64,000 bases of DNA from Escherichia phage vB_EcoM-ZQ1, in the sequence record MW650886.1; one strand, given 5' to 3'. Shown here piece after piece: positions 3,325 to 63,610 of this stretch (positions within the stretch are counted from its first letter, which is position 1; every line of letters begins with the position of its first letter). A program made the translations under genes and the position numbers. The notes under the pieces are model-generated. The model saw only the letters and a list, made by a program, of their open reading frames with translations. It was not told where the DNA came from and made no database searches.

Positions 3325-3333
3325 AAACTGCTC

Positions 3334-3368
3334 CAATAAACAAAAGGAGCTGCTATTATAGCAGCCCC
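3334..3368 (-). terminator. intrinsic terminator
   Basis: GCTGCTA-TTA-TAGCAGC hairpin followed on the minus strand by TTTTGTTTATT. Confidence 0.5.
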
Positions 3369-11893: not shown

Positions 11894-12042
11894 TGTTTGA
11901 AACTGATTTATTATCCTACTTCGTGATGTGTGATGAATTGAAGTTACACGGCTATAGCATATTTGAAATCAACGAGTCGATGCCATGGCATCTTGACTTG
12001 TTAACCGAAGCCCTCAAGGTCAGGTTGTCTAAGAAACAGTAA
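11893..12042 (+). CDS. small hypothetical ORF (49 aa)
   Basis: TAATG-coupled to the previous gene (MFETDLLSYFVMCDELKLHGYSIFEINESMPWHLDLLTEALKVRLSKKQ), followed directly by an intrinsic terminator; below the ORF-track size cutoff. Confidence 0.25.
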   Translation: MFETDLLSYFVMCDELKLHGYSIFEINESMPWHLDLLTEALKVRLSKKQ

Positions 12043-12066
12043 TCCCGCTTCGGCGGGATTTTTATT
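12042..12066 (+). terminator. intrinsic terminator
   Basis: ATCCCGC-TTCG-GCGGGAT hairpin followed by TTTTTATT. Confidence 0.6.
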
Positions 12067-12112
12067 GTCTTAACTGCAAAATAGGTTAACACGCGTTCTC
12101 TTTACCTGAAAT

Positions 12113-12121
12113 TGCTATAAT
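12113..12121 (+). promoter_or_regulatory. possible extended -10 promoter (TGcTATAAT)
   Basis: TGCTATAAT in the long non-coding stretch upstream of the gp5-like gene; no clear -35. Confidence 0.25.
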
Positions 12122-12277
12122 GGGCTTGTTCCCGAGTCATTTGTTGGTGTTTGTCTGTTTTGAATCAGATTGTCAGTAAAATACCATTTTTCAAGGAGTG
12201 TTCTGGGGTGTACAGTTATTGCCTCGCCCTTATGCCTCCATGGCATTGGAATGGTGCTGCCCGCATAGGGCGGTTTG

Positions 12278-12296
12278 ATGAGCGAAGCGAATAGGA
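12278..12296. repeat. 19-mer shared with 54425..54443 in inverse orientation
   Basis: ATGAGCGAAGCGAATAGGA is the exact reverse complement of TCCTATTCGCTTCGCTCAT; each copy is flanked by ATAAAACAAATA. Confidence 0.55.
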
Positions 12297-12363
12297 TCGA
12301 ATAAAACAAATAAAATGAACGGAAGCAGAGCTTCCTATAGTATATAAGGCAAAATCAGCTGCG

Positions 12364-12371
12364 CATAAATA
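12364..12371 (+). promoter_or_regulatory. late-promoter-like motif CATAAATA
   Basis: 7/8 match to TATAAATA, 34 nt upstream of the gp5-like ATG; same spacing as the motif at 6251. Confidence 0.4.
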
Positions 12372-12405
12372 CCTTCAAATCCTTGTTTGACAACCGGAAC
12401 TCAAT

Positions 12406-24204: not shown

Positions 24205-24212
24205 TATTTATA
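24205..24212 (-). promoter_or_regulatory. T4-type late promoter motif TATAAATA (minus strand)
   Basis: Reverse complement of TATTTATA, 24 nt upstream of the 23875..24180 ATG, directly after a terminator hairpin. Confidence 0.45.
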
Positions 24213-24236: not shown

Positions 24237-27200
24237 TCAGATCTTAATCTGCATGTTGCCACCCAGGGACTGCTCGTACTCGCTGTATGCGCCTTCCCCG
24301 TAGTCTCGTGCCCACTGGTCAGACTGCTGGGCGCTATCCAGAGTCATCAGGTTTGGTTCAGTCGGGTTGTAACCCTTGGACTTCGCATCCCGGTACAGAG
24401 TCTGCAGGTACTGGTTGGCGCGGTCAATCTGAGCTTTGAACTCGCGATATGCCCCTTCAGTTGTGTTGCGGCGGAAGGTGATATCCCAGTCCACGTTCAG
24501 AGTCTGACCATCACGGCTTGCATAGATCTGCCAATCCAGGTCGCGGCCTTTTGGTGCGTTGTCGCGGATGGAGTCGGCGTATGCCGCAAGGTCGTCCTTC
24601 GGATTGTGCGACGTGCTTTTCAGAAGTAGTGCATGACCCATACCACCGTTTGGCTCAAGAGACCATTTTCCTGTTTCTCTTCCCAGGCGTTCTATGTTGT
24701 TGAGTTGGTTTATCGACAATTCAGAAGAGTCAAATAATACCACATCACGTTTTTTGGGGGTTCTCACATAAGGGGTGAGATCAATGTCGATCATCCGGTT
24801 TATAAATTCTACCACTTCAGCTTGTTTCTTTGGCAATGTGGTATTGATATCCGGCTTGTTTGCCACTTTCTCTAGGCGTTTATTTTCTGCGCTTATCATG
24901 GACAGCATAATTTGTGTAACTTTGCCGTCAGACAAGTTGTAATCATTCCAAATCACTTCACCTTTATCCGTGATGGTTATATCGTTCAAGAACACCTGGT
25001 TTGGGTTGTATGACTGACTTTTCAACTGTTGGAGGTTTCTGGAAAGATATACCATTTTTGATGAAATCTCATCAATCACACTCTGGACCATATCTTTGTT
25101 TAAAGGAAGTTCATATGTCTTCGGATTGTTCAGGGTACGCCCTTTCTGAGAGACAATTGGGGTGAATGCAACTTTACCTTTGTCGTAGTAATAGGTCACG
25201 TTGGTTATCATAGAAGTACCGGCGTATTTTCCCGTTTCGGGGAAATTGACATCCCACCGAATGGACATGCCGTTGACAGTCTCACCAAACACCATGGCGT
25301 TGCTTGGTATCTTCAGGGTTCCAGAGTTGACCAGATCAGCGCCTTGGGCATTCAGGTCGATAGAACCATAGATAGCCCCGGTAATACGATCTTTCAACAT
25401 CAGGGTCTTGTCGCCCTTCTCTGGGATGATTTCCAGCGGGTGCTTGCCACGCGGAGGTTCTTTGATGAGTTCCAGTAGAGCAGTTTTCCCTGGTTTCACA
25501 CGATTCAGGACAGCGTCGGACACTGTCAGAGTCCAGTTTGCGGTTTCCACATAACCCCAGCCCCGAGAACGGCGAATGGCTTTGATAGGATATGGAGCGC
25601 TTGTTGGCACTGCGCTAATTTCCCATTTGCCAGTGTACTGGGTCTTGGCAACCTCAAAGATGGACGCAATTACTGCATTGGCGACGTCACGGGCGCTACC
25701 TTTGGCCACGTTCTCCTCTTCAGCAATTTCGCTGAAAACTGAGTATTGAACGAAACCAGCGAGGACGTTTGTGAAGTTGACAACGATAACCAACCCGCCT
25801 GCTGTCGTGTAACGACCAGCGCCCACACGACGGATGTTTTCACCAGGAAGAATAGAAGTGTCCAACCCAACGTTGGTATCAATGATACCCAGAACACGAG
25901 CGATGAAACCACTGTCACGTAATTGATCAACACTGGTTGCACCCTCGGTCGAATCCGATGCGGATTTAGACACTTTGTTCAACTTGATAGAGACAAGGGT
26001 TTCCCCGTTGACACCGATGATATCCCATTCAGTACCCTGCTCGTTCGAGGTGCGGGCAATCTTGCGCTTTGAATTGATGGCACCTTCGTAACGCCCGTTC
26101 TTGACCACAACAGAGGCAGTAGCAGCATCAGTCGCACTTGCTGCATTTGAAAAGTCTGGGTCAGAAATACTGATGTCGACGTCACCGTTTTGAGAACGCA
26201 TGCGAACACCGTTTTTGAATCGTTCAACGTTTACTTCTCGAGCACCAAGTCGTTTGGCATCAATAACAGCAGTTCCAGAACCGATAATGTTGGCTGGGTT
26301 ATTTCTGTCTGAACTGTTTTGAGAACCTTTCCAAAATTTTGTAGACGCCATGGTGAAATCATTCAGGATATTGATAGGGACTTGCGGTAATTTCAACTGA
26401 CGAGCAATGAAATCAGCACTTTGCCCACGCACAGGTTTCTCATTCATGTATGCGCCAACATACACGCCCGGCTCATTGTAGTGGGGAGCGATATTTGCCG
26501 TGTTCGTGCGGCCTCTCTCCTTACCAGCCCATAACAACATGGGCTGATCCCCGTTTGAAGTTAATTTCCATCCGTTGCCATTGCTGGTGTCATTGCTGGT
26601 GTCATTGCTGGTGTCAACGTCCACCACCAGAATTATCTGAGCACCTTTCTTGAAAGTGTACTGATCGTACATACCTTTCTTCTGTTTGGTCATGGACGCA
26701 CCGACCAAGTCTTGGTTGGTGAAGCCGCGCTTCATATTCCAAGATACCTCAGTCCCGTCTGGATATTTGTCAAAATCATAACCATAGAATGTGGCTACTT
26801 CTTTCGAACCGCTTATCAGACGGACGTAATTTCCACGAATCGGGTCTCGCCCGCTCTTCAACTCCAGACCAGTGTCCGAGCTGTTGTACCACTCGCGGTT
26901 GACTTCTATTTCAGAAGAACCAGCCCCAACTCCCACATCCGGAGTATTGTTCTGAACCGGAACGTCACCGACTTTGTCTGGATCATCCCAGGTGATACCC
27001 TGCATCTTCGGACCGTCGAATACCTGAGCCGGATCTTTACCCTTACGAACTAGCCACACATAACCACGGTCAGGAACAGGCGCGTAGGTCAGGTCCATGA
27101 CGTTCAGTTTCTGCTTCAGGCCGGACTGGCGGATGATCTTAGGAATCAGGGTCATACCGCGATCCAGCGCTTTCTTAGAGAAGTTGACAGCAAAGCCATC

Positions 27201-27527
27201 GATGGTCTTACCCAGAGGGGTCGCCATGAATTGTTTGGTCGCTTCGATCATGGAAGCGATAACGCGCATTGGGTTCTTGAAGCGAGCGATGGCGTCAGGA
27301 TAGACGGAGCCGCGCTTCTGGCCGATGAAAACCTGACGAACGCTCTTGCCCAGCCCCTGAGGAGTATAGAACTGAATGCGGTATTCCTTATCATCTTCGT
27401 CGACGAAGGTAAAGAACACATCGCCTGCGTTCTTCTTACCCATGGTCAGCTCATACGGAGCGGAGTTGAACGCTTCGTCTAACTGATCTCTTTCCTGCAT
27501 GAACTGGAGGAAACTTAGCTTTGACAT
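24237..27527 (-). CDS. large hypothetical protein (1096 aa) with internal (DTSN)x3 repeat
   Basis: Long uninterrupted ORF with AGGAGA SD; no family recognised. Confidence 0.6.
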   Translation of the reverse strand: MSKLSFLQFMQERDQLDEAFNSAPYELTMGKKNAGDVFFTFVDEDDKEYRIQFYTPQGLGKSVRQVFIGQKRGSVYPDAIARFKNPMRVIASMIEATKQFMATPLGKTIDGFAVNFSKKALDRGMTLIPKIIRQSGLKQKLNVMDLTYAPVPDRGYVWLVRKGKDPAQVFDGPKMQGITWDDPDKVGDVPVQNNTPDVGVGAGSSEIEVNREWYNSSDTGLELKSGRDPIRGNYVRLISGSKEVATFYGYDFDKYPDGTEVSWNMKRGFTNQDLVGASMTKQKKGMYDQYTFKKGAQIILVVDVDTSNDTSNDTSNGNGWKLTSNGDQPMLLWAGKERGRTNTANIAPHYNEPGVYVGAYMNEKPVRGQSADFIARQLKLPQVPINILNDFTMASTKFWKGSQNSSDRNNPANIIGSGTAVIDAKRLGAREVNVERFKNGVRMRSQNGDVDISISDPDFSNAASATDAATASVVVKNGRYEGAINSKRKIARTSNEQGTEWDIIGVNGETLVSIKLNKVSKSASDSTEGATSVDQLRDSGFIARVLGIIDTNVGLDTSILPGENIRRVGAGRYTTAGGLVIVVNFTNVLAGFVQYSVFSEIAEEENVAKGSARDVANAVIASIFEVAKTQYTGKWEISAVPTSAPYPIKAIRRSRGWGYVETANWTLTVSDAVLNRVKPGKTALLELIKEPPRGKHPLEIIPEKGDKTLMLKDRITGAIYGSIDLNAQGADLVNSGTLKIPSNAMVFGETVNGMSIRWDVNFPETGKYAGTSMITNVTYYYDKGKVAFTPIVSQKGRTLNNPKTYELPLNKDMVQSVIDEISSKMVYLSRNLQQLKSQSYNPNQVFLNDITITDKGEVIWNDYNLSDGKVTQIMLSMISAENKRLEKVANKPDINTTLPKKQAEVVEFINRMIDIDLTPYVRTPKKRDVVLFDSSELSINQLNNIERLGRETGKWSLEPNGGMGHALLLKSTSHNPKDDLAAYADSIRDNAPKGRDLDWQIYASRDGQTLNVDWDITFRRNTTEGAYREFKAQIDRANQYLQTLYRDAKSKGYNPTEPNLMTLDSAQQSDQWARDYGEGAYSEYEQSLGGNMQIKI
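26579..26614. repeat. in-frame 12-nt x3 perfect tandem repeat inside the 1096-aa gene
   Basis: CATTGCTGGTGT x3 on the plus strand, encoding DTSNDTSNDTSN on the minus strand. Confidence 0.7.
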
Positions 27528-43729: not shown

Positions 43730-44053
43730 TTATTTGCGCAGGGCAACCACGAGTTCAGCGAGTTCACCCATGGTCGGGTCATCGCCTTTACTACCCAGCC
43801 AACCGTCGTCGATTTCGACCTGAAACTCTTCTTCTAGTTCCATTACGATTTCGATGGCATCCAGTTCGTCACCACCGAGGTCTTTCTTGGTACGGAGGCC
43901 AGCCAGCTTGTCCAGGGCGTCCTCGTTCTGAGATGCCACGTCGTCCAGCAATTTGCGCTTGTCATCGTCACGCCACAGATCCATATTCAGATTGTCAGTG
44001 GCGTACTGAGCCAGATGACGCATGACTTCAACATATGTTGGTTTACTGCTCAT
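43730..44053 (-). CDS. acyl carrier protein-like protein with Ser-to-Glu at the phosphopantetheine site
   Basis: DLGGDELDAIEIVMELEEEFQVEIDD aligns with E. coli ACP [26 protein letters not shown]; the DSL serine is Glu here. Confidence 0.55.
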   Translation of the reverse strand: MSSKPTYVEVMRHLAQYATDNLNMDLWRDDDKRKLLDDVASQNEDALDKLAGLRTKKDLGGDELDAIEIVMELEEEFQVEIDDGWLGSKGDDPTMGELAELVVALRK

Positions 44054-44060
44054 GTTATTA

Positions 44061-44086
44061 CTCCAAAGAAAGGCGGGTTGCCCCGC
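44061..44086 (-). terminator. hairpin after the vWA gene
   Basis: GGCGGG-TTGC-CCCGCC followed by TTTCTTTGG. Confidence 0.45.
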
Positions 44087-44094
44087 CCGTTGGA

Positions 44095-46296
44095 TTAGAT
44101 TTTGATTTCTTTCTCTGTCAGTTCGGCAGTGACCTTGTACTTCACGCCATCCACTTCAACTTCCATGGTGGACTCTTCCAGGTCGAGATCGGTGAACCAG
44201 CCATGGCCAGCAACGATACCATAAACCACTTTAGACAGCGTCTTGTTCAGGGCACGGACTTCGGTGATGGCCGCCTTGGCAGCAGCGTCGATCCAGTTTT
44301 CGATCAGCTGTTTCTGTAAGGCTTCAGGCACGGCAGTGATCATAGGAGACTTCACGAATGCTTCGTACTCCTTCAGCGCATTGGCGATGAACAAGTCACC
44401 AGCATTGAGTTTCTTGTTCTCGGCAATCTTCTTCTGTACCGCTGCGATAGACGGTAGAGATGAAGCGCCAGCGATCTTCACGTTCAGCTCACGGCTCATG
44501 TAGAAGTCGGTAGACTCTTTGGTCTCAGTCTTCGGTGAGAATCCGTAATCGCGGATGCCGTAGGAGGACAGGAACTCGGCCGCCTCAGCGCCGTACTGTA
44601 CTGCCAGGCCTTTGGCGTTACCCTTACCAACCAGGGCGTCTCGATAGAACTTCAGCACCTTCTGCTTGCCTTTCAGGGCTTCCAGACGGACATTATCCGC
44701 AAAGAACTGAGCAGCACTGATGTTCTTGACCATGGCGCGGTTGACCAGCGGTACGCTTTCCAGGTTCAGGACAAACACTTCCGGACCACCAAACACGTGG
44801 ACGCCCATTTCGATCAGCTTCTGTACAACTTCGATATCAGCCTTGAACGGTAGAGTCTTCACGTTAATGATACCGTCTTTGACGATGGTGTAGTTGCGCC
44901 ACTGGAAAGTATCCAGTTCTTCAGGCAGGCCAAACTTCTTCTGTGCGAATTCAGGCACAGCCACAGTACCGTGTTGAATTGTACGCACGCTGATGTTCGG
45001 GCGCTCGGAGTTATAGACCAAATCGCTGATTGGCACAACACCCAGGTCGTTGGTAGGTTCGAACGTCGGGTTCCACTCTTCGTGTTCTGCCAGCTTGAGA
45101 GCCAGGGCTTTACGCTCTTCTTTGGACTGAGCATTCGCGATCTGTTCTGCCAGCTTGTCTTCGGTGTCGTCGGTTTTCTGCACAGTACCGCGCCCGATGC
45201 TCTTATAGGAGAACATCGGATGCTTGGTAGCAACAGGCACACCAGCTTCAGCCAGGTACGTCAGCACGTCAACGACGGTCGTCGCATCTTCAGCCGGAAC
45301 CAGGTCATAGTCAATACCGTCAACGCCGCGCAGCTGGTCATCAACGATGGCCTGGGTCAGATCGTTCTTGATGTTGGAGTAGTCCTGCTTGGTGAAGCAG
45401 TTGCTGTACTGTTTGATGAAGCGAACGTCGCCCGTCTTCTTCAGCGCAGCCCAAACCAGATCTGCGTCCATAGTGTGTACGCCGTAGAACGCCAGCACAT
45501 ATGCCGCCTGGATGTCCGTCAGGCTATCCATCTGGTCGATCATGTTGGGGTTTACAACCCACAGCTTGGTGACGCTCTCAGGGATGCTCACGTGGCCGAT
45601 AGGATGGTCTTCATCCGGCTGTACCGCCAGCACAGTTGCTACGCCGTTTTCAACATAGATGGCGTGGGTGTATAGCAGAGGCACATCAACAACCACCTTC
45701 GGCACTGATGACTTCAGCACGTTTTCCAGTTCGGTCTGGTATTCGGTCTGACCTTCGGCAAACACGTGAGTTGCGCCAGAGCGCTCGGACATCTGCGCCA
45801 GCAGTTCACGGTTACAGTGCCAGCCGTATTCGATGAAAGTAATGTTATCGAACGCGGAAGGAAGTTTTTCGGCGGTATCCAGGATTTCATTGGAGTGCCA
45901 GCAGTTGTCATAACCATCGGTCATGAATGCCAGGTTGTTGACGTAGCCAGGTTTCTTCAGGTCACGCGCAGTATCCATCGCCAGTTTCAAAGGCTCAACA
46001 AAGCCAGTACATCCGGACGGTTGCAGGAAGCGATCGATCAGTTTGTTCAGCTCGCTCAGGTCAGACGCAGCACTAACCTGGCGGCCAGCGAACACAGTAC
46101 CAAAGTCTCCTTTGGAGGAGAAATACAGAACGCTCACAGTGTCTTCCGGTTTCACCAGGGAAGGCAGGTTCTCCTTCAGATGCTTACGGACTTCAGGGAG
46201 CGCACGGTACATAGAGCCGGAAATGTCTACAACGATTACATGGTTGGACGGAGCAGCAGTCGCAACCGCATTCTTAAATTCTAATGATTCAATCAT
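44095..46296 (-). CDS. von Willebrand factor A (vWA, MIDAS) domain protein
   Basis: N-terminal VIVVDISGSMY (DxSxS MIDAS) ... MTDGYDN; start re-set to MIESLEF. Confidence 0.6.
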   Translation of the reverse strand: MIESLEFKNAVATAAPSNHVIVVDISGSMYRALPEVRKHLKENLPSLVKPEDTVSVLYFSSKGDFGTVFAGRQVSAASDLSELNKLIDRFLQPSGCTGFVEPLKLAMDTARDLKKPGYVNNLAFMTDGYDNCWHSNEILDTAEKLPSAFDNITFIEYGWHCNRELLAQMSERSGATHVFAEGQTEYQTELENVLKSSVPKVVVDVPLLYTHAIYVENGVATVLAVQPDEDHPIGHVSIPESVTKLWVVNPNMIDQMDSLTDIQAAYVLAFYGVHTMDADLVWAALKKTGDVRFIKQYSNCFTKQDYSNIKNDLTQAIVDDQLRGVDGIDYDLVPAEDATTVVDVLTYLAEAGVPVATKHPMFSYKSIGRGTVQKTDDTEDKLAEQIANAQSKEERKALALKLAEHEEWNPTFEPTNDLGVVPISDLVYNSERPNISVRTIQHGTVAVPEFAQKKFGLPEELDTFQWRNYTIVKDGIINVKTLPFKADIEVVQKLIEMGVHVFGGPEVFVLNLESVPLVNRAMVKNISAAQFFADNVRLEALKGKQKVLKFYRDALVGKGNAKGLAVQYGAEAAEFLSSYGIRDYGFSPKTETKESTDFYMSRELNVKIAGASSLPSIAAVQKKIAENKKLNAGDLFIANALKEYEAFVKSPMITAVPEALQKQLIENWIDAAAKAAITEVRALNKTLSKVVYGIVAGHGWFTDLDLEESTMEVEVDGVKYKVTAELTEKEIKI

Positions 46297-46459
46297 CGTT
46301 ATTGCCTTCTTCAGGGTTGTCTTCGGCCTCACCTTCCGGCTTGGCCAGCATATATTCAAGGAAGTCGCGATTGAGTTCAATCTGACTCATCAGCGTTTCG
46401 CTCGGTTTAAAGCTGAGGTCGATGGTGTCTAGACCAGCTTTCTTGAATGGTTCTGTCAT
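46289..46459 (-). CDS. small acidic hypothetical ORF (56 aa)
   Basis: Hand translation MTEPFKKAGLDTIDLSFKPSETLMSQIELNRDFLEYMLAKPEGEAEDNPEEGNNDD; stop overlaps the vWA start; below the ORF-track cutoff. Confidence 0.25.
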   Translation of the reverse strand: MTEPFKKAGLDTIDLSFKPSETLMSQIELNRDFLEYMLAKPEGEAEDNPEEGNNDD

Positions 46460-46552
46460 GGTTAGTCGACCTTCACTTCAGTAACACCAGGTATTTCACG
46501 GACATGGGCCAGGCCTCTGTTTGTTAGTCATGGCGTATTATACTGCGAAGGG

Positions 46553-46798
46553 TTAATTGAAACGCCCAGCATTTACGCTGGACGTTATTGATATTGAAAA
46601 GGTTTTGACAAACTCAGGATTTGGAGGAAGCACCCTTCCATGTCTGCCGTCGCCATGGGCATGGCAACCGACACGGGCATCACATGGAGTGCACACCCAG
46701 AACTTCAGATTGCGGAGGTCAGGGCGATGAGGGTAGAGAACATCACCACCGACGAATTCGGCTGGGAGGCCACAGTAATCACATATAACAGGTTTCAT
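46553..46798 (-). CDS. zinc-ribbon protein
   Basis: CDYCG...CTPCDARVGCH; start MKPVICDY chosen because the longer listed ORF begins inside the upstream terminator hairpin. Confidence 0.4.
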   Translation of the reverse strand: MKPVICDYCGLPAEFVGGDVLYPHRPDLRNLKFWVCTPCDARVGCHAHGDGRHGRVLPPNPEFVKTFSISITSSVNAGRFN

Positions 46799-46804
46799 AT
46801 TCTT

Positions 46805-46836
46805 TGTCCAAAAGAAACCCCGCACATGGCGGGGTT
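46805..46836 (-). terminator. intrinsic terminator
   Basis: AACCCCGC-ACATG-GCGGGGTT followed by TTCTTTTGG. Confidence 0.5.
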
Positions 46837-46858
46837 GCTCAGGCCGAGGCCAACAGGG

Positions 46859-47230
46859 TTATTTCAGCAGCGCTTCCAGTTCTTCAACAGATTTGCTTTC
46901 CAGCTCTTGCTGTTTCTTACGCTGGATCAGCTCCAGGATAATCTGGTTGTTCGCCTTACGCTCTGCCGCTTCTCTGCTGTCGTCACGTTCTTTCAGCTTA
47001 ACGCCGATGATGTGCTTGACAACGTCGAAGCGCAGCTGCAGTTCGGAGTCAACGTTGCTTTTGGTGCCAATGAAATCTTCTTCATCGGTTTCTGCTGCTT
47101 TCACCTGACGGCTCAGACCTTTCGCCATTTCGTTCAGGGCAGTCAGGCTCAGGTCCCAGACCTGCTCAACAGACAGCAGACCTTTGTTAGACTCGAAGCG
47201 CAGTTTCATACGGGTTGCTTTATCAAACAT
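46859..47230 (-). CDS. hypothetical protein
   Basis: 123 aa charged helical protein; GAGGA SD. Confidence 0.5.
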   Translation of the reverse strand: MFDKATRMKLRFESNKGLLSVEQVWDLSLTALNEMAKGLSRQVKAAETDEEDFIGTKSNVDSELQLRFDVVKHIIGVKLKERDDSREAAERKANNQIILELIQRKKQQELESKSVEELEALLK

Positions 47231-47274
47231 TTTACTATCCTCAATGATGAATGGGTTACAATTTCAAATCAGGT

Positions 47275-49293
47275 TTAGAACACAACTTTCACAGTGCGGT
47301 TGAACGAACCGCTCACCTTCACGAACACGTGGTTGCGTTGGGTGGTAGAGAAGCCCAGACCGGACAGCTGCTCAGTGCTTGGCTGTACTTTAATCTTACC
47401 ACCTAACATTTCAAAAACCTTGCGGTGTTTATCAAGTTCCGGCTTCAGATATTCGTTATAGAAACCACGGGTGCCGACAGGGTTAGCACAACCTTCCAGG
47501 ATGAAGAACACGTGCTTGTTGCCAGTCTGCTCGCCGTCCCAATGGTTTGGTGAGTTCAGAACCAGCTGTACCTTCTGGAAGACGGAGGTCTTGATACCCC
47601 AGATTTCCTGAGAGCGAGCGTCGTCTTTCAGGGTAGAACTGATGTCAACCACCTGACCAGCGCGAACCTGAACCACAACAGCCAACGTGCGATCTTTGTT
47701 ACCCAGGCCAGGGTGTGAGAAGCGCTTAGTCTGACCTTTGTATTCAACTTCGATTTCGAAACCAACGTCACAGGTTTCACGCTTGTTGAAGTTGGTGACA
47801 TAGAACTCATAATTCCCGTCGCGCAGCTTGCTTTCATCGCTAAAGAAGATGTTCTCCACCGGACGGCGGTTTGGATCAATGCCGTCCATACCGTTCATGT
47901 CGATGTCCAGAGTTGCGCCAGTTGACGAACGACGGTTGCGAAAATATACGTGGTTGTGAAGAGGATCGTTCATGCTCAGATCCAGGTCGTCGTTGTTATG
48001 CCAAGCCAGTGACACGCGGAGGAAGCTGTCGACATTGCCGCCTGCGGTCTTCACGCGCTCTTTGATGGAGTCGGCCACTTCGCCATTGTACGACCAGCTG
48101 AAGCCGTTGTTCCACTTGAACAGGTTAGGAGCGCCTGCGGTAGCCGGAGCGATCAGGGACATCAGGTTGCCAATGTGAGAGTTTTCAACCAGTACTTCCA
48201 GGGAATGCGCCTTTGGCAACACGTTGGTCAGGAAGTCGTCGATCGTGATCTCTTCAACCTTGTCCAGGGACTTGGTCGGAGTCTTCACTTCAGACGCCAG
48301 CTGAGCAAACGGGTCCATCTTCTTCTGAGCTGCCAAATCGGCGAACAGAACGTTGTTGATGGTCAGATCGTCATACACGGCATAACGGCGACCCAGTGAA
48401 TCAGTCAGACCCAGCGCTTCGACTTCTTTCTGCGCGTTTTCAATCATCGACTTCGTGACCAGCGCGGTTGGGCGCTTGTAGTTCGTCGGAGCGACTTTGG
48501 CTTCAAAGGACTTCACGGCGGTTTCCAGATCCCGGCCTTCATTGAGGTCTACCAGCAGAGAGCCAATCACGGTATTACGAATGCCGTGAGGGATATGACC
48601 GTTTGCACGGTAGCCAGTGCGCCAAGCCCACAGAGCGCGTTTCTCTTCTGCAGTTTGTTCGTACAGGGTCTTGTTCACCACGAACGCCTGCACTGCCGCT
48701 TTGTGCTCTTCACCGCGATACAGAGAATTCTGGTCAATCAATTCCAGAACGATTTCAGCCGATTCCAGAGACAGTTCACGCAGGCCGCGCTCAAACACTT
48801 CAATCGCCTGGCGGATTTCACCCTTCTTAGAAGCGATGGTATCTGCCCGCAGAACATAGCTACCCAGCAGGTCGGTGTGGAAGTGGTTGTAGGTGCGGAC
48901 AATACCGTCTTTCATTTCGTGATTCGACCCAACACCAACTTTCTTGGTGTCGTTGAAGTACACATCGACGATTGCGTGCTGCTTAACATATGCTGACAGC
49001 GCCGCAGCGACAACGTCGTATTCGTTACCCAACTGAATGTTATCCCAGATAGAGATCACGTTCAGGTCGGAGTCGATGGTGACCACACCGCCGATATTAC
49101 GGATGAATTGTTTACAGCAGGTACAGTCGTGCTCGGTACGCTCACGATAAAGCGGGTTAGTGCCAGCAGGGAAAGAAGACAGATACAGATCCCACAGAGC
49201 ATCTTTATCGATGTTGGTCATGAACAGACCAGTTGCTGACATGGCCAGCACGTTATTGTTGACAGCTACTGCGAAGGGCTTAAAATCTGACAT
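47275..49293 (-). CDS. large hypothetical protein (672 aa)
   Basis: Long ORF with GGAAG SD; no family-B polymerase motifs (DxxSLYPS, YGDTDS) seen on inspection. Confidence 0.6.
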   Translation of the reverse strand: MSDFKPFAVAVNNNVLAMSATGLFMTNIDKDALWDLYLSSFPAGTNPLYRERTEHDCTCCKQFIRNIGGVVTIDSDLNVISIWDNIQLGNEYDVVAAALSAYVKQHAIVDVYFNDTKKVGVGSNHEMKDGIVRTYNHFHTDLLGSYVLRADTIASKKGEIRQAIEVFERGLRELSLESAEIVLELIDQNSLYRGEEHKAAVQAFVVNKTLYEQTAEEKRALWAWRTGYRANGHIPHGIRNTVIGSLLVDLNEGRDLETAVKSFEAKVAPTNYKRPTALVTKSMIENAQKEVEALGLTDSLGRRYAVYDDLTINNVLFADLAAQKKMDPFAQLASEVKTPTKSLDKVEEITIDDFLTNVLPKAHSLEVLVENSHIGNLMSLIAPATAGAPNLFKWNNGFSWSYNGEVADSIKERVKTAGGNVDSFLRVSLAWHNNDDLDLSMNDPLHNHVYFRNRRSSTGATLDIDMNGMDGIDPNRRPVENIFFSDESKLRDGNYEFYVTNFNKRETCDVGFEIEVEYKGQTKRFSHPGLGNKDRTLAVVVQVRAGQVVDISSTLKDDARSQEIWGIKTSVFQKVQLVLNSPNHWDGEQTGNKHVFFILEGCANPVGTRGFYNEYLKPELDKHRKVFEMLGGKIKVQPSTEQLSGLGFSTTQRNHVFVKVSGSFNRTVKVVF

Positions 49294-49407
49294 GATGTAA
49301 TCTTCCTGTTTCAGTTCAAATGTGCGCCCCGTTTGCCAGGGCGCTTCGTTTAAGTGAGGTCAATATACGCTGGATTGAGTTATTGAAGAACGAAGTAAAG
49401 GGAATCT

Positions 49408-50628
49408 TTATTCAGGTTTCTTCAAACGGTCCAGCAAATTGACGGAACCACGTTTGAGCACGACTTCATCACAGCGCTTTTTGTATTCCCCACCGCCGTC
49501 ATATCCAACCTTCCCGCGCGGTTTTTTACCTTGCTGTATGGCCTCTACACAACGAGTATATTTCGACAATTCACAAAAGTGGTTTTCTAATTGTTGAACA
49601 TTCATACACTGATCCCAAGGCTCTTCCGCAGACCAAAATTCTTCCCTGTTATACCCAAGAGGGCCATAAACCGCGTCCTGATTGTCCCGCAACCAGAAGA
49701 TGCATTCTTCATGCGTCATGCCATCTTTGTCCTGGAACATCAGGTCGATCCCTGCGCGACAGCCTGGTCCAGCAACCGTGAAGTGGTTCTCACTGAAAGG
49801 ATATTCAGGAATGTAAGTGAAGTCAACCCATATCTGATAGGCCAGGAATGGGCCAAGCCCTTCGATGTCGTCATACATGCGCTGGTATACTTCCAAAGGA
49901 GTACCAAGGCGCAGCAGGTCATGGAAATAATTTGGATACTTGTTGACGAATGCCTTCAGGGAGCGGATGACACGCATTGGCATGTACGGTTCCCAACCTT
50001 CGATGGTGTAGAAGTCCGGCTCTGCTTCGGCTATCGCCTTGGCTTCTTTATAATCCATGTTCTGGGTTGAACCGTCTTTACAGATCAGATTCACCATCAT
50101 CCCACCGAAGCGCTGCTCCTTGTGGTTGACAACCATCTCAGGGAAAGCCAGGCATTGCTTCAGGCCGCCCGTGTTGAAGGCATTGGTGAATACCTTACCA
50201 CCGTCGGCCTCGAACTTCTGAAGTCGTTCGCGGGTTGCATCGAGGTTGATCTCGGCGAATTCTTTGATCGTCATCGCGCCGCCGATAGCCTGGATTGGAT
50301 CCCAGAGGTTGAACATGCGGAACAACACGCAGTTGAACATCTTGTCGGCCATACCCAGAGCATCATTCTTGGCGATGTTGTTGATCAGGTTGAGAGACTG
50401 CCTGTCGTGCTCTCTCCGGACGTTACAGAATTTAACCTGGCGTAGTATGGGATTATCAGTCCAAGGAGCAGGAAGGCGCTGGACGTCCTTCTTGACGTGG
50501 ATCTGATAACGATCGCGCATCCATTCGTAAGACAGGCGGGTATGGGTCGGGCTGAGAACCGGTTTGGCCGACTTTATCTTTTCTTCACGGACACCGCAGT
50601 ACGGGACGTCCAGGGCTTTATCTTTCAT
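49408..50628 (-). CDS. hypothetical protein (406 aa)
   Basis: AAGAGGA SD; terminator hairpin just upstream. Confidence 0.55.
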   Translation of the reverse strand: MKDKALDVPYCGVREEKIKSAKPVLSPTHTRLSYEWMRDRYQIHVKKDVQRLPAPWTDNPILRQVKFCNVRREHDRQSLNLINNIAKNDALGMADKMFNCVLFRMFNLWDPIQAIGGAMTIKEFAEINLDATRERLQKFEADGGKVFTNAFNTGGLKQCLAFPEMVVNHKEQRFGGMMVNLICKDGSTQNMDYKEAKAIAEAEPDFYTIEGWEPYMPMRVIRSLKAFVNKYPNYFHDLLRLGTPLEVYQRMYDDIEGLGPFLAYQIWVDFTYIPEYPFSENHFTVAGPGCRAGIDLMFQDKDGMTHEECIFWLRDNQDAVYGPLGYNREEFWSAEEPWDQCMNVQQLENHFCELSKYTRCVEAIQQGKKPRGKVGYDGGGEYKKRCDEVVLKRGSVNLLDRLKKPE

Positions 50629-50640
50629 GGTATCCTCTTA

Positions 50641-50673
50641 GAATACGAAAACAGAGGCCATTATAGCCTCTGT
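50641..50673 (-). terminator. intrinsic terminator (loop contains TATAAT)
   Basis: ACAGAGGC-CATTATA-GCCTCTGT followed by TTTTCGTATTC. Confidence 0.5.
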
Positions 50674-50696
50674 TGTTTAGTGAATAACCGTATATC

Positions 50697-51569
50697 TTAA
50701 TCGATACGGGTCAGTTGGGTGATAGATGATTGCACTGGGCTGGCCACATAGATACGGACGTTGGCTTTCCATTCACCCCAGATCAACGGTAGAGTTGGGA
50801 AGTTGTCTTCATTGAAAACAAACACGGGAATGTAGCTCTCGACTGTTTCGCCAGAGAACGCCTGGAAGCCCATCTTGGTGTATCCCATGATCTCGTCAAT
50901 AAAATCGAACGGCGCGTAGGCAACACCAGCATGTTCGTTGCATCCGAGTCGACCTGGGGTAGCCGTGCCTGTCAGAATGATTTCGGTGATCTGGCGCTTA
51001 GGCTCGGTGGTCAACATATCAGAGAAGTCAGGCTCTTTGAAGGTTGCCATGTTCTTCAGGAACTTGCCAGCCGGGTATTCTTTACCGTCGACGGTGATGG
51101 TGTCTACTACTTTGATGCACGCCTGAGGGAATTCCCCTTCGATGCGCAGACTTTCGCGTGGGAAGCCTTTGTTGTAGTAGTAATCCAGTGCTGGCACAAC
51201 TTCACCTTCATTACGGATGAACTTGCTCATGTTAGAGGCATACACGCGCTGTAGGCATTCGTCACCGTCGAAACCAGCAATATGAGCCACGCCGTCGTTG
51301 ACTGTTGTGATGTCACCCTGGGCATCCATGATCTGGCGCATAATGTCTTTGATGTCGACAACAACGGGTTCTTTCAGGACTCGCGGAGATGCAGTGAACT
51401 CAATTTTCACCTCGTGGTCGAAATACGCCGCTTCCAGCAGTTCACGGGTTTCTTCCAGCACCAGTTTCGCCTGATTGCGGATCTTACCAAAGTCGGGCGA
51501 TGTGACGTCGCCCTTTGCATTACCGAAAGCCAGATTCAGATTCACGTTCTTGGAAAATGTAGTTGTCAT
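50697..51569 (-). CDS. hypothetical protein (290 aa)
   Basis: GGAG SD; directly downstream of regA, where T4 carries gene 43. Confidence 0.5.
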   Translation of the reverse strand: MTTTFSKNVNLNLAFGNAKGDVTSPDFGKIRNQAKLVLEETRELLEAAYFDHEVKIEFTASPRVLKEPVVVDIKDIMRQIMDAQGDITTVNDGVAHIAGFDGDECLQRVYASNMSKFIRNEGEVVPALDYYYNKGFPRESLRIEGEFPQACIKVVDTITVDGKEYPAGKFLKNMATFKEPDFSDMLTTEPKRQITEIILTGTATPGRLGCNEHAGVAYAPFDFIDEIMGYTKMGFQAFSGETVESYIPVFVFNEDNFPTLPLIWGEWKANVRIYVASPVQSSITQLTRID

Positions 51570-51585
51570 GATTTAGCGACTCCAG

Positions 51586-52050
51586 TTATTCGCTTTTTGC
51601 CTTCGTAGGCCGGATGATGTATTTTGGAACCAGTTTCCATTCAGGAACCTGATCGTGTTTAACCACTTTAATGCGAGACATATCGGCTGCTTCAGTGACC
51701 TGCTCAGGATGAATGACCTTCACCATGTTCCACTGCTCCAGCAGCTTGATGATGCGGTTCATCCTCAGGACATCTTCGCGGTTAAATCCGTTGTAATGCC
51801 CGTCCAGCATAAATAGATGCTTAAAGTGGACGATATAATACTTACCACACTTATGAAGAATATGGCAAGTCTGATACAGAGTATTCGGCTCTTGGCGCGT
51901 GTTTACCCCAATTCGACTCAGTGTTTCCTTGATCCCCAGGAATATACCTGGCCGATCTTGGTTCAATTGAACTTCAACCATACAATCAACGATGCTGGCC
52001 TCATCGTTGACTGCTGAAATATTCAATATGTCTAGCGTATTACGCGCCAT
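51586..52050 (-). CDS. regA: translational repressor RegA
   Basis: LYQTCHILHKCGKYYIVHFKHLFMLDG and EWKLVPKYII match T4 RegA (LYQSCHILQKKGLYYIVHFKEM, EWKLVPKYTI); the start may be the internal MVEVQL. Confidence 0.7.
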   Translation of the reverse strand: MARNTLDILNISAVNDEASIVDCMVEVQLNQDRPGIFLGIKETLSRIGVNTRQEPNTLYQTCHILHKCGKYYIVHFKHLFMLDGHYNGFNREDVLRMNRIIKLLEQWNMVKVIHPEQVTEAADMSRIKVVKHDQVPEWKLVPKYIIRPTKAKSE

Positions 52051-52079
52051 GACTCATTCCCCTTTTACAATAGTTTGAA

Positions 52080-52502
52080 CTATTTAGCCTTGCGCGGTTT
52101 CGCTTTGGCGTTCAGCTCAGTGCGTCTCATCTTCTCGCGTATCTCGGCCAGGACTTCCTTCGGCAAGAAACGGACGTACTCCGATGCCTTCTCCATGCTG
52201 ATGTAGAAGTACTCTGAGAGTAACTTCACGTCAGGATCAATCGGACCTTTCTTAGACCATTTGTCGTAGCGTTTCCGAGCCGGAATGGTGTAAAAGGCAT
52301 ATGACCATTGCATCCATGGAGTGATAGCATGTAGCTTATTCATCTGTTGCGCAGCCACTAGAGTGTCTTTGCTCTGAGCTAAACCACGCCGCGTCATAAA
52401 CGGGTCGAATCCTTTCAACACTTCTGGGTCATCAGACCGCAAAAGGTTTTCTTTGCTGCTGTTCAGAGCAGCCAGGTAATCGAACAATCCAAGGGCGGCC
52501 AT
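52080..52502 (-). CDS. 62: clamp loader small subunit (T4 gp62-like)
   Basis: PARKRYDKWSKK resembles T4 gp62 PRGKRYGKWAK; sits between gp44 and regA as in T4; start re-set to MAALGLF with GGAAGTGA SD. Confidence 0.6.
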   Translation of the reverse strand: MAALGLFDYLAALNSSKENLLRSDDPEVLKGFDPFMTRRGLAQSKDTLVAAQQMNKLHAITPWMQWSYAFYTIPARKRYDKWSKKGPIDPDVKLLSEYFYISMEKASEYVRFLPKEVLAEIREKMRRTELNAKAKPRKAK

Positions 52503-52506
52503 AATA

Positions 52507-53493
52507 TCACTTCCACTTGATGTTGAGCATGACATTGGTCAGGAAAAACACAGCATGCAGCCAGACATCGCCGACTTGACGGTGTTCAATCTGAGACTGA
52601 CCACATACGCATACCAGATCCGGGATAGACTCATTCTGAACCAACATTTGCTTCTCTTTATCCTGTGGTACACAGAACTGGAAGAAGCGGGAATAGAAGT
52701 CTTCAGTGATATAGTTCTGGTTGTCGGTCACCCACTGCTTCATCCCAGCCCAGTCATTATCCTTCAACATATTCACCAACATACCCATATCGGCCGATTT
52801 TAACACAGCCAGTGCACGTTCGTCGATCTTGCCGTAAGTGGTGACGTTATCCTGTAGAACACCCATGATGCGGCGGTTATCAGGGAAATGGCGCTTGACA
52901 ATAGCAGCCAACACAGGAGGGTCATACTCAACACCTTCGCAGCGAAGGATTTCAGCACAGCGGCGCATGAACTGAAGTTTTACCTCATCAGCCTCAGCCT
53001 CATTCCAGATAAAGTCGATTTCACGGCAACGAGAGCGCAGAGGTTCGTTCACACGTTGCTTGGCGTTGGTGGTCAGGATGAATGAACAGTTCTTGGAGAC
53101 CTTCTCCACAATACCCTTCAGCGACTCCTGTGCCGCCATAGACAGACGCTCTACTTCGTCGAGGATAACGACTTTGCGACCACCGAATACGCTCACACCA
53201 GTAGAGTACTGAATCACGCGGTCACGGATAACGTCGATGCTGTTGTCCAGGGATGCGTTGATCATCAGTGGTTGCTTACAACCGATTTCATTACACACGG
53301 CCAGGGCGGAGGTAGTCTTGCCAGTACCAGGCTGAGGGGAGTAGAACAGCATAGACGGGATGTTGCCGTTGCCGCTGGTGATGTAGCCATGGATTTTAGC
53401 GCGGACGTCTTGAGGGATGATAATCTCGTCCAGGTTGTCAGGGCGGTACTTGTTTTCCCATGCGTACTGGTCGGAAACGATAGTAATATTAGA
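52507..53493 (-). CDS. 44: clamp loader ATPase subunit (T4 gp44-like, AAA+)
   Basis: ENKYRPDNLDEII, PGTGKTT, ILDEVERL and SRC motifs match T4 gp44; start re-set to MSNITIV. Confidence 0.85.
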   Translation of the reverse strand, partial: SNITIVSDQYAWENKYRPDNLDEIIIPQDVRAKIHGYITSGNGNIPSMLFYSPQPGTGKTTSALAVCNEIGCKQPLMINASLDNSIDVIRDRVIQYSTGVSVFGGRKVVILDEVERLSMAAQESLKGIVEKVSKNCSFILTTNAKQRVNEPLRSRCREIDFIWNEAEADEVKLQFMRRCAEILRCEGVEYDPPVLAAIVKRHFPDNRRIMGVLQDNVTTYGKIDERALAVLKSADMGMLVNMLKDNDWAGMKQWVTDNQNYITEDFYSRFFQFCVPQDKEKQMLVQNESIPDLVCVCGQSQIEHRQVGDVWLHAVFFLTNVMLNIKWK

Positions 53494-53576
53494 CATTTCA
53501 GCCTCGTGTAGAAGAATCATTTCAAATAGGCGGGGAACGCCCCGCCCACACATTATAGCATCAGGCTGGAGATTGA

Positions 53577-54245
53577 TTACTCAATCTGTGCGCCGACGAA
53601 GTAATTGATCGTCGCGTCGGATGATTGGAAGTTCACCATCTGTAGATCAGCACAGGCACGCAAAGTGTAGTTGCCTTCGATCATTTTCAGGTTGGCAACA
53701 TCCAGCGGCATTACGAAGTCCGGCAGCGCGGTTTCGCCCAGCTCAACAGTGTAGTTGTTGGAGTTGTCCAGGGTAGTAGTGGTTGCAACCAGGCGAGTTT
53801 TGCCACCCTGAGCAACCAGGCGCACAGTCTTATGTCCGAGGGTAGAACAGGCGCGGGTCAGTTCTTTCATCTTCTCTGGAGTGATGATCGCTTCAAAGTC
53901 GACAGACGGCAGTTCAATAGTATCAGCCGGGACAACCGTGAGTTCTTTAGCAGAACGCCAGAATTGCAGCTGAGAACTTTCGCCCTTCAACAGGATGTAG
54001 TCCTGATGGAATTCGGCTTTGGCACCTTTAAAGGAAGGTAGGCGCTGGATAGCCAGAAGTTTGGTCAGGTCCAGAATCGGGAACTCAAACGGGAAGTCTT
54101 CTTCGATCTGCGCCACGGCGATCACAGTAGAAGAATCATTAATACTGCGCAGCATCTTGCCCGGTGTCAGAACGATAGATGGGTTGATGGTCTCAAAGTT
54201 GGCCAGCAACTGAAGTGTACGTTCGGAGAGAGTGATCTCTTGCAT
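53577..54245 (-). CDS. 45: sliding clamp (T4 gp45-like)
   Basis: 222 aa, the size of gp45; two-domain beta-rich protein directly upstream of gp44/gp62/regA in T4 order. Confidence 0.8.
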   Translation of the reverse strand: MQEITLSERTLQLLANFETINPSIVLTPGKMLRSINDSSTVIAVAQIEEDFPFEFPILDLTKLLAIQRLPSFKGAKAEFHQDYILLKGESSQLQFWRSAKELTVVPADTIELPSVDFEAIITPEKMKELTRACSTLGHKTVRLVAQGGKTRLVATTTTLDNSNNYTVELGETALPDFVMPLDVANLKMIEGNYTLRACADLQMVNFQSSDATINYFVGAQIE

Positions 54246-62137: not shown

Positions 62138-63610
62138 TTAGTTCAAGACATATTTGATCAGTCCACAATTCCAAATCCTGACCAACCCGGCTTCGGTTGC
62201 TAACTGGCTTTCTGTTTTGCCTTCTACGTCATACCCCATGCGAGCAAATGAACCTTTTCTGAAACCGAATTTGTGCTCACGCATAAATGTGCCAGGCTTG
62301 TGATATTTGTAGTCTGGCTTCTGTACTTCCTCTTCTACGAATCCGTGGGATAGGTAAATGTTGGACAACCTGCTTACAACACACCTATCCCCAAAGGAAT
62401 AGATTTTGGTGTCGGCAAATTTTCTTCTGAAGTGTGAAAGAAGTTTACTGAATGCCCCGTGGCAATCATTAGAGGCAAATCTGACTAATTCCAGGCCATC
62501 TTTCCTTTTAGTGAATAGCATCACGGCTTGTATGACCTCACTCTTGTCAATTAACGACAAATGGTGGGTAGAAGAAACGGAACCTTGTATGTGGTGGTTG
62601 TCTAAAAACTCCCTCAAGCCGCTTATATTCCCCCAAACGACTTTGTGTTGGCGAGCATATGACGCAGGCGTTTTAATGCCAAGTTTAGCTTTCAGAAGAG
62701 ATTTTACCACTTCCTGTTTCTCAACCCATTCATCTTCCCAGATGTGGACCAACTGGATACCCTGAGATTCACATATTTCAGTCTTTTCCAGGTGATAATG
62801 TTTCTCTTTAAAAACTTCTGAATGCCAGTACAGGCCATTAAATTCAATCGCCAATTTGTGTTCAGGGCAATAGATATCCAGTTGTTTACCGGATAATATA
62901 CTGTAATCAGAAACAGTGTTTACAACTCCCATTGAGGTGAGAAACTCGGATATTTCCTTTTCATAAGAAGATTTCTTGTTCCTGATAGAACCATTGCTGA
63001 ACAACGCACGTTTTAGTATGTTCGAGTTTTTCATAGGGTTGTCAACACCATAACGTTCTTGTAACGTTGCCAACGCCTTCTCCCTCACACCAGGTAATTG
63101 TAGTGTGGAGCAGCTTCCGTATTTGGATATATTCGAAGTCTCTATGGCTTTCCGACCAATACCACCTTTACACATAGAAACCTGATAACATTCTTCAGAA
63201 CAATATGTTCTGTAATCTTTATTATTGATGTAAAAGTTGGTTTCCTTGGAACACACCGGGCATATTTTCACGGTTCTATTGTACATCCAAGCTGTGACTT
63301 TACAAGCCAAATCTTGTAGGGTGTTGTGGGCATTGGCGAACACTAAAAGGTCTACATTGATGTGCTTCATAAGCAGTTCAGATTTGCATTTTTGGATATC
63401 CAATTTGTTGTTCTTGGTAAACATATATTTGTAGAAAAATTGGCGATATGATTCCTCGTCAGACAATTCATTCACTGCTTCAAGGAAACCTTCCGGGAGG
63501 TTCTTTAGGGTGTTCGATGCGAAGGTCTTGCAAGCATCTGAACAAAATTTCTTATCTTTCCTGGATGCTTTGAACTGTTCATGGCAGACACTACAGATTA
63601 CCTGATACAT
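62138..63610 (-). mobile_element. putative freestanding homing endonuclease gene (zinc ribbons plus Vsr/DUF559-like nuclease domain)
   Basis: 490 aa; two CxxC pairs (CSVCHEQ..CSDAC and CPVCSKE..CSEEC); KLAIEFNGLYWHSE resembles the Vsr-like AIFVDGCFWH core; the gene looks more AT-rich than its neighbours. Confidence 0.4.

Follow-up and report, generated by a model that had tools for sequence, protein, structure and literature searches.

In a 64,000-nucleotide stretch of DNA (hereafter the window) from Escherichia phage vB_EcoM-ZQ1, we analyzed the genes that follow a T4-type clamp and clamp-loader cluster on the minus strand, i.e. at 44095-51569, where T4 carries its DNA polymerase gene and where this phage encodes four large proteins of 290, 406, 672 and 733 amino acids (aa). 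We found that these genes probably make up a conserved early/middle gene block of the Ackermannviridae, composed of functionally independent pieces and not of one system, with the DNA polymerase located elsewhere and with the 290-aa and 406-aa proteins belonging to thymidine modification. The predicted early/middle placement agrees with the T4-type late-promoter motif, TATAAATA, not occurring in the block. The "polymerase slot" of ViI-like phages would accordingly be filled by nucleotide-pool and thymidine-hypermodification genes together with two orphan genes, one for a 672-aa protein of the family DUF8224 and one for a 733-aa protein with a vWA domain.

Conservation and layout of the block

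The window stems from an Ackermannviridae (ViI-like) phage that is essentially Escherichia phage vB_EcoM-ZQ1, with whose proteins the 672-aa and 290-aa products are 100% identical. Megablast with positions 44000-52100 matched 283 phage records, all of Ackermannviridae type, of which 152 cover at least 80% of the block; the best match is Escherichia phage A221 (97% identity). With conservation at the DNA level in 283 records, the open reading frames (ORFs) of the block are not chance ORFs, and the ORF listing of the window confirmed all four large ones on the minus strand exactly where the original prediction, made from the sequence alone, had placed them. Its observation that gp45, gp44, gp62 and regA are ordered as in T4 also held when compared with the T4 record (45-44-62-regA-43). 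The genes that it listed are present, but a 123-aa gene at 46859-47230 had been overlooked and the presumed zinc-ribbon gene is a truncated remnant. The description of the proteins as uncharacterized was wrong for the 406-aa protein, a clear Pfam HMUDK_hel match (2e-80), and partly right for the 290-aa protein, which is MazG-like according to PHROG profiles. Nor is the block unusual for its lineage, since it occupies a fixed, conserved position in Ackermannviridae: in ViI, regA is followed in the same order by MazG (orf00161), orf00160, orf00158 and then orf00144 (vWA) and the acyl carrier protein (ACP) gene. As an ordinary, conserved block of a well-sequenced family, it derives its residual interest from the two orphan families, above all the pair formed by DUF8224 and its partner, and from the question of what the clade 1 aGPT-PPlase does.

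In transcription order, the genes encoded on the minus strand from 43.7 to 54.3 kb are:

53577-54245, minus strand: gp45, 222 aa
52507-53553, minus strand: gp44, 348 aa as listed; the ORF start may be upstream of the true start
52080-52535, minus strand: gp62, 151 aa as listed, 140 aa annotated in relatives; Pfam Phage_clamp_A, 2e-10
51586-52050, minus strand: regA, 154 aa; Pfam Translat_reg, 2e-34
51586-54245, minus strand: the four genes above as one T4-type clamp and clamp-loader cluster (Pfam, PHROG clamp-loader matches, relatives' annotations)
50697-51569, minus strand: putative MazG-like protein, 290 aa; orthologue of ViI Vi01_131c / orf00161
49408-50628, minus strand: aGPT-PPlase clade 1 / HMUDK_hel protein, 406 aa; orthologue of ViI gp160 (Vi01_130c)
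47275-49293, minus strand: DUF8224 (PF26675) protein, 672 aa; predicted internal TerD-like beta-sandwich at residues ~425-560
46859-47230, minus strand: partner of DUF8224, 123 aa, helical; phrog_2018
46553-46825, minus strand: truncated zinc-finger ORF, 90 aa; DUF3268
44095-46296, minus strand: vWA protein, 733 aa from ATG, 761 aa from an upstream TTG
43730-44053, minus strand: ACP-like protein, 107 aa

The DNA polymerase

None of the four large proteins had a polymerase or exonuclease match in Pfam (no DNA_pol_B), PHROGs, NCBIfam or the PDB, in agreement with the earlier impression, gained by eye, that polymerase motifs are absent. ViI has its DNA polymerase gene, Vi01_190, in intact form (998 aa) at 145128-148124, ~57 kb from the block, where it adjoins the genes of the kinase gp243 and the transferase gp247. 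As judged from these comparisons, the family-B DNA polymerase has not decayed in the block and is in this lineage located elsewhere. That the four proteins should be split or highly diverged pieces of a T4-type family-B polymerase, as the original prediction had also considered, is suggested by position only, i.e. by gene 43 following regA in T4. With no such domain in any search made, a different fold or family identified for each protein, and an intact enzyme elsewhere in a phage of the same family, we consider the chance of this to be negligible.

Thymidine hypermodification

The 406-aa protein matches Pfam PF18723 (HMUDK_hel) with 270.6 bits (cut-off 25; 2e-80) over profile positions 4-280 of 281, and is 82% identical over its full length (407 aligned aa) to Vi01_130c of ViI. 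Both this gene and ViI gp160 are situated in the same genomic position, downstream of regA and MazG. In ViI, gp160 corresponds to orf00160 and is listed as aG/PT-PPlase1 (PMC5889632 Table 3). Mixed lysates with the five recombinant ViI proteins gp67, gp160, gp226, gp243 and gp247 turned 5-hydroxymethyl-dU (5-hmdU) DNA into 5-(2-aminoethoxy)methyl-dU (5-NeOmdU) in vitro (Lee et al. 2018, PMC5889632), and work with purified enzymes identified gp67 and gp243 as 5-hmdU DNA kinases, gp247 as a serine:DNA transferase and gp226 as a decarboxylase (PMC8989533). Judged by orthology with gp160, the 406-aa protein is a member of the thymidine-hypermodification gene set. Two further genes of the pathway were identified in the window:

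2665-3336, minus strand: orthologue of the 5-hmdU DNA kinase gp67 of ViI; 88% identity to Vi01_061c
1619-2665, minus strand: dUMP hydroxymethylase-like thyA homologue; 77% identity to Vi01_060c, Pfam Thymidylat_synt 1e-15

The presence of these orthologues implies that the phage has a thymidine-modification pathway, and it very probably carries 5-hmdU-derived hypermodified thymidine. The 406-aa protein showed no similarity to gp247 by BLAST and no match to PDB sequences in a single-sequence search. It would most likely act after replication, on kinase-activated 5-hydroxymethyl-dU in DNA, and share in the making of 5-(2-aminoethoxy)methyl-dU with the 5-hmdU DNA kinases, with gp247 as serine transferase and with gp226 as decarboxylase.

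For the adjacent 290-aa protein, PHROG profiles point to phrog_2144, "MazG-like pyrophosphatase" (3.5e-133), and, over residues 2-193, to phrog_671, "nucleotide pyrophosphohydrolase" (2e-20); NCBIfam gave no match. All 18 orthologues compared share six acidic residues, i.e. E39, E40, E43, E46, D82 and D86, with a spacing that was judged by eye only. The family was found exclusively in Ackermannviridae (246 matches). Removal of dTTP is required in 5-hmdU phages (PMC8989533), and hydrolysis of dTTP and/or dUTP by this protein would keep thymine from new DNA and feed dUMP to the dUMP hydroxymethylase. That a clade 1 aGPT-PPlase (gp160) is fixed beside a family-specific MazG-like enzyme suggests treating both together.

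DUF8224 and its small partner

The precomputed matches from which membership of PF26675 (DUF8224) was read, the local Pfam copy being without that model, list this family for a protein identical to the 672-aa product and for 119 of the 120 homologues listed, the exception being a fragment. Against the local Pfam copy the 672-aa protein had no family at E<=0.1, TerD included. DUF8224 is a large family: 4895 cluster representatives match at E<=1e-3, and 1229 still do so at E<=1e-30. Its members, typically ~670 aa, are 40-50% identical over the full length across unrelated phage groups. It was found by tblastn in 554 phage records, including Ackermannviridae, rV5/CR8-like and Caulobacter phiCbK-like phages, Bacillus BCU4/PK16, Ralstonia RSL1, Microcystis Ma-LMM01 and Cellulophaga phi4:1, as well as 70-76-kb phages of Pseudomonas, Stenotrophomonas, Vibrio and DSS3 that we took to be N4-like on grounds of their genome size and, for one metagenomic locus, of a neighboring N4-type RNA polymerase. 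All but a few stray labels in the 554 records read "hypothetical". The labels "putative DNA-directed RNA polymerase" and "ATP-binding-cassette protein" on some orthologues were unsupported by any search. We found no relevant paper on DUF8224, PF26675 or TerD-like domains in phages.

Of 84 DUF8224 neighborhoods compared (80 from IMG/VR and four more), 74 have a homologue of the 123-aa gene as the next gene downstream in the same orientation, separated by a median of 17 nt. Wherever the sequence leaves room for the partner (82 loci), it was found. The partner itself (profile A6) had no Pfam or PDB match and no detectable relative of known function. Other neighbor families recur only in the ~13 Ackermannviridae loci or in at most nine loci, apart from artefacts due to antisense ORFs over the partner gene. 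A Pfam census of 124 genes flanking the modules gave no recurrent family, the commonest being DNA_pol_A (five), helicases, RtcB and RNA ligase. No vWA homologue was found near DUF8224 outside Ackermannviridae in the loci examined. From these neighborhoods, DUF8224 and its ~125-aa partner appear to be an obligate two-gene module that many unrelated virulent phage groups carry amid genes for replication and RNA repair.

The AlphaFold2 model of the 672-aa protein is confident, with a predicted local distance difference test (pLDDT) score of 91, and the only solved fold that it matches is TerD, by a beta-sandwich at residues ~425-560 (~115 of the 672 residues) within which D438, D463, D465 and E480 are invariant. 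Sequence searches against the PDB, both with the single sequence and with profile A2, gave no match, and TerD chains were not retrieved by the profile. A fold search of BFVD returned uncharacterized phage proteins only, very distant jumbo-phage relatives among them. According to the model, the segment is a TerD-like domain, not a member of the TerD family. It would bind Ca2+, for which the invariant acidic residues are suggestive only. Our best guess for the module as a whole is a nucleic-acid or host-takeover role in early infection. A tentative, and on balance doubtful, extension of this is that DUF8224 and its ~125-aa partner are an unrecognized two-protein machine, very widespread in large virulent phages (Ackermannviridae, rV5-like, phiCbK-like, SPO1/Bastille-like and N4-like phages, RSL1 and cyanophage Ma-LMM01) and built mostly of folds without a solved relative plus a Ca2+-binding TerD-like sensor, with a part in some step of nucleic-acid metabolism or host takeover that has yet to be named. 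The pair is very common and strongly conserved, and its strict pairing and TerD-like domain give an experimental starting point.

Some annotations of DUF8224 are split. In ViI the gene is annotated as two overlapping ORFs, Vi01_128c/129c (11301-13320 of the extracted locus, L004); Dickeya phages (matches H75 and H84) have fragments only (1-267 and 1-89); and PHROGs holds separate fragment families. These cases could reflect frameshifts, sequencing errors or insertions. In two metagenomic contigs (L010, 6966-7985 and 12884-14023; L011, 6777-8390), one of them probably N4-like, the module is found near AAA or MoxR-like ATPase genes, and in one of the two a DUF2201 (vWA-like) gene is also nearby. 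A MoxR/AAA partner for DUF8224 was considered and rejected, as AAA genes lie near in these two loci, are not general over the 84 and were not found in the window by tblastn with two phage AAA proteins. Likewise, a "Bradyrhizobium" contig encodes close to DUF8224 a 712-aa candidate vWA homologue, which turned out to be a GHKL ATPase without similarity.

The vWA protein

The N-terminal vWA domain with an intact DxSxS MIDAS motif that had been recognized from the sequence is well founded. Pfam PF00092 (VWA) matches residues 20-184 of the 733-aa protein with 33.5 bits (cut-off 23.8; E 6e-8), the DxSxS...T...D motif is complete, with D24, S26 and S28 at least 90% conserved and T97 and D127 invariant in 91 homologues, and residues 1-195 have the vWA alpha/beta fold. 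A beta-sandwich (200-250) and ~480 aa of alpha/beta structure follow. Searches of PDB sequences, with the single sequence and with a profile, retrieved nothing beyond the vWA domain. We take this to be a stand-alone cytoplasmic protein of vWA and beta-sandwich type, as far as its sequence and distribution indicate. Its MIDAS would most likely clamp an acidic residue of a protein ligand via a metal ion, which would make the protein an adaptor.

The family, with 142 matches, is much smaller than DUF8224 and looks phage-only. Its members occur in Ackermannviridae, RB43-like relatives of T4, Shewanella phage Thanatos-1 and many jumbo phages of 300-500 kb. In RB43 the gene is ORF119c, amid small hypothetical ORFs and on the strand opposite to the flanking baseplate genes. 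The neighbors vary by lineage, e.g. DNA ligase, PNKP, dCMP deaminase, RNA ligase, Tad3, CCA-adding enzyme and, in jumbo phages, a transglycosylase. The latter, a 554-aa PF00912 peptidoglycan transglycosylase (4e-42; L127, 10335-11999), follows the vWA gene at a distance of one or two genes in seven of ten jumbo-phage loci, lies 10-13 genes away in the remaining three, and is the only recurrent vWA neighbor seen outside Ackermannviridae: no other recurrent family, DUF8224 included, was found there among the 78 vWA loci. MoxR-type AAA+ ATPases (AAA_3/AAA_5) were absent from the vWA neighbors with Pfam listings, from the window (tblastn with two phage AAA proteins) and from the annotations of the 134 kb of ViI examined. 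The label "tail protein", borne by the vWA orthologue in one deposited genome, was unsupported by any search.

The gap separating the DUF8224 module from the vWA gene

The zinc-finger ORF between the two orphan genes matches Pfam DUF3268 (1.8e-7, residues 12-64), has 90 aa compared to ~142 aa in relatives, and keeps only the equivalent of codons 1-61 of Shigella phage ChubbyThor gp164. Window positions 46495-46640 replace ~4 kb of ChubbyThor DNA (L001, 5496-9509), comprising gp160-gp163 and including genes for nicotinamide phosphoribosyltransferase (NAMPT) and ribose-phosphate pyrophosphokinase (PRPP synthetase). These NAD salvage genes and two small genes are found between the vWA and zinc-finger genes in ChubbyThor, SKML-39 and Ag3 and are missing here. 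By this alignment, the deletion also took the C-terminal half of the DUF3268 protein, leaving the ORF as a remnant, and the gap would be a variable insertion site that differs between relatives. Terminator-like hairpins, each recognized by consensus match only, were found after the MazG-like gene, the DUF8224-partner pair and the vWA gene, which fits separate units as far as such predictions go:

50650-50674: terminator-like hairpin after the MazG-like gene that precedes the 406-aa gene
46816-46836, minus strand: terminator-like hairpin after the DUF8224-partner pair; 8-bp stem with 6 G-C, T-rich tail
46495-46640, no strand: deletion junction; window 46100-46494 corresponds to L001 5102-5495, window 46641-47400 to L001 9510-10269
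44071-44088, minus strand: terminator-like hairpin after the vWA gene; 7-bp stem with 6 G-C, T-rich tail

One system or independent pieces

Outside Ackermannviridae, none of the parts of the block adjoins another in the loci examined. In these loci, vWA and DUF8224 were neighbors within Ackermannviridae only, which speaks for independent pieces. The original prediction had instead favored one novel accessory system, possibly of defence or anti-defence, formed by the vWA, 672-aa and other large proteins around the vWA/MIDAS protein. It was right in expecting accessory genes other than a polymerase, and the co-linearity of the genes on one strand, in an order kept in all Ackermannviridae examined, agrees with a single system, as do at least two other genomes in which both vWA and DUF8224 occur (contigs L045/L122 and L076/L141). 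In these two genomes, however, the genes lie ~28 kb and ~100 kb apart, and two members of the supposed system, the 406-aa and 290-aa proteins, are assigned to another pathway that is already known. The suggested pairing of the vWA protein with an ATPase in defence or anti-defence did not hold up either: no AAA+ partner was found in the window or among the vWA neighbors inspected, and neither the 123-aa protein nor any of the four large ones matched a PADLOC defence model at E<=0.1. One system centered on the vWA protein is therefore quite improbable. Somewhat better placed, yet still unlikely, is a Ter-like module in which the TerD-like DUF8224, the vWA protein (in the manner of TerY/TerF) and the phosphoribosyltransferases (PRTases) of relatives would make or sense a nucleotide-like signal for superinfection exclusion or stress resistance. 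TerD is the only solved fold matching DUF8224; Ter systems, of which jumbo phages reportedly have examples, join TerD with PRTases and vWA proteins (PMC7824862); and in relatives the very gap that separates the vWA gene from the DUF8224 module is occupied by NAMPT and PRPP synthetase. This has to be set against a TerD-like part of only ~115 of 672 residues without a Pfam TerD match, the lack of TerB, TerC and TelA among the proteins scanned, the loss of the PRTase genes here with both large genes intact, and the unlinked occurrence of DUF8224 and vWA elsewhere.

A role of the vWA protein and/or DUF8224 in the virion or its assembly, e.g. as a tail protein or as an assembly cochaperone of MoxR-vWA type, is very improbable. 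MoxR-vWA pairs do help other viruses to assemble their virions (PMC7824862), the vWA orthologue bears the label "tail protein" in one deposited genome, and mass spectrometry of virions of a Kuttervirus yielded one peptide for the vWA protein, as well as three and one for two "putative DNA-directed RNA polymerase" products, a label shared by some DUF8224 orthologues (PMC10892097). These counts are tiny compared to the 196-311 peptides that the table gives for virion and assembly proteins. Moreover, the genes lie amid replication genes and are without the late-promoter motif, a MoxR ATPase was found neither in the window (tblastn) nor among the ViI annotations examined, and in RB43 the vWA gene is oriented opposite to the baseplate genes that flank it.

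The reading as a conserved set of independent pieces, with two of them in thymidine modification, has several points weighing against it. The assignment of the 290-aa protein as a MazG-like nucleoside triphosphate (NTP) pyrophosphohydrolase comes from PHROG profiles only, there being no Pfam family even at E<=10 and no PDB match with the single sequence or with profile A5. Its most likely substrates, dTTP and/or dUTP, are purely our inference, and ViI codes for two further NTP pyrophosphatases that might serve equally well. For gp160, serine transfer is credited to gp247 with no step given to gp160 (PMC8989533), and its necessity for 5-NeOmdU is reported in neither PMC5889632 nor PMC8989533. 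Of the orphan proteins, ~85% of DUF8224 is without a fold match or an experiment explaining it, the complex that DUF8224 and its 123-aa partner would form is suggested by gene adjacency alone, and the ~480 aa C-terminal to the beta-sandwich of the vWA protein are conserved without a match in whole-protein searches. Lastly, the order is co-linear within Ackermannviridae, where a functional coupling of vWA, DUF8224 and the others is compatible with the distribution data.

The ACP-like neighbor and other genes in the window

The 107-aa ACP-like protein matches Pfam PP-binding (1e-5) and phrog_4154 (2e-57). At the position of S36 in E. coli ACP, where the DSLD motif has its phosphopantetheine serine, each of the 18 distinct Ackermannviridae orthologues has E or D, and the motif reads GDELD here. 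With the serine replaced throughout, the protein is no conventional carrier; it might act as an ACP decoy or bind to some other partner. ACP-like matches were found in 22 of the 78 vWA loci scanned, all of Ackermannviridae type, and in 19 of 21 loci that have the family its gene comes right after the vWA gene. Since this adjacency is confined to Ackermannviridae, the protein was not retained as a candidate MIDAS ligand of the vWA protein and is reported as a side note only. In two DUF8224 loci outside Ackermannviridae (L076, 6954-7454; L079, 13160-13453), ORFs match the serine-less ACP-like profile (3.5e-10 and 8e-8), in one case immediately upstream of DUF8224.

Three more minus-strand ORFs of the window deserve mention. 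A 1096-aa ORF (24237-27527) has no Pfam family and matches phrog_3867 (unknown function), with residues 900-954 resembling a family of internal head proteins; just downstream of its 3' end, at 24205-24212 on the minus strand, is the late-promoter motif TATAAATA. The 175-aa ORF at 42446-42973 matches the C-terminal end of phrog_832, an RNA polymerase ADP-ribosylase (1e-15). Weak endonuclease-type matches (MTES_1575, DUF559) were obtained for a 490-aa ORF (62138-63610), which may be a homing or restriction-like endonuclease.

Comparison with known systems

The closest known vWA and beta-sandwich proteins to the 733-aa protein are a Catenulispora vWA protein (4fx5), ITIH1 (6fpy), archaeal ArnB (8s05; Sec23/24 core-like) and Sec24. 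TerD (Klebsiella, 2kxt; Streptomyces SCO6318, 2qz7) is a Ca2+-binding beta-sandwich of tellurite-resistance operons, whereas in the 672-aa protein the TerD-like fold would be one domain of a larger protein whose other ~550 residues match nothing solved, with no TerD match at the sequence level, no ter operon and a small helical partner instead.

The 290-aa protein is likened to MazG and other all-alpha NTP pyrophosphohydrolases, and to the dTTPase-dUTPase activities of hydroxymethyluracil (hmU) phages, by its match to PHROG profiles annotated as MazG-like and, more tentatively, by the invariant acidic residues of its N-terminal helical part. It differs in that it lacks a Pfam MazG match and a match to any solved MazG sequence, has an extra C-terminal region of ~100 aa and belongs to a family restricted to Ackermannviridae. 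ViI gp160 is the nearest counterpart of the 406-aa protein, at 82% identity and in the same position, with no structural difference, and in both genomes orthologues of the 5-hmdU DNA kinase and the dUMP hydroxymethylase co-occur. HMUDK_hel is also the C-terminal domain of gp186 of Bacillus phage SP10. Amino-acid:DNA transferase activity has been demonstrated for gp247, the paralogue of clade 2 (PMC8989533), not for the clade 1 gp160.

At the level of gene order, the comparison is with the T4 arrangement 45-44-62-regA-43-(imm)-42-beta-gt. Clamp, clamp-loader and regA genes follow each other in the same order, and both phages have DNA-modification genes just past the replication cluster, i.e. 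gene 42 and beta-gt in T4. The polymerase gene follows regA in T4 and not here, and the modification chemistry concerns cytosine in T4 and, as predicted from its genes, thymidine in this phage. Given that gene 42 and beta-gt also lie near the T4 cluster, modification enzymes beside clamp-loader genes are not an oddity of the ViI-like phages.

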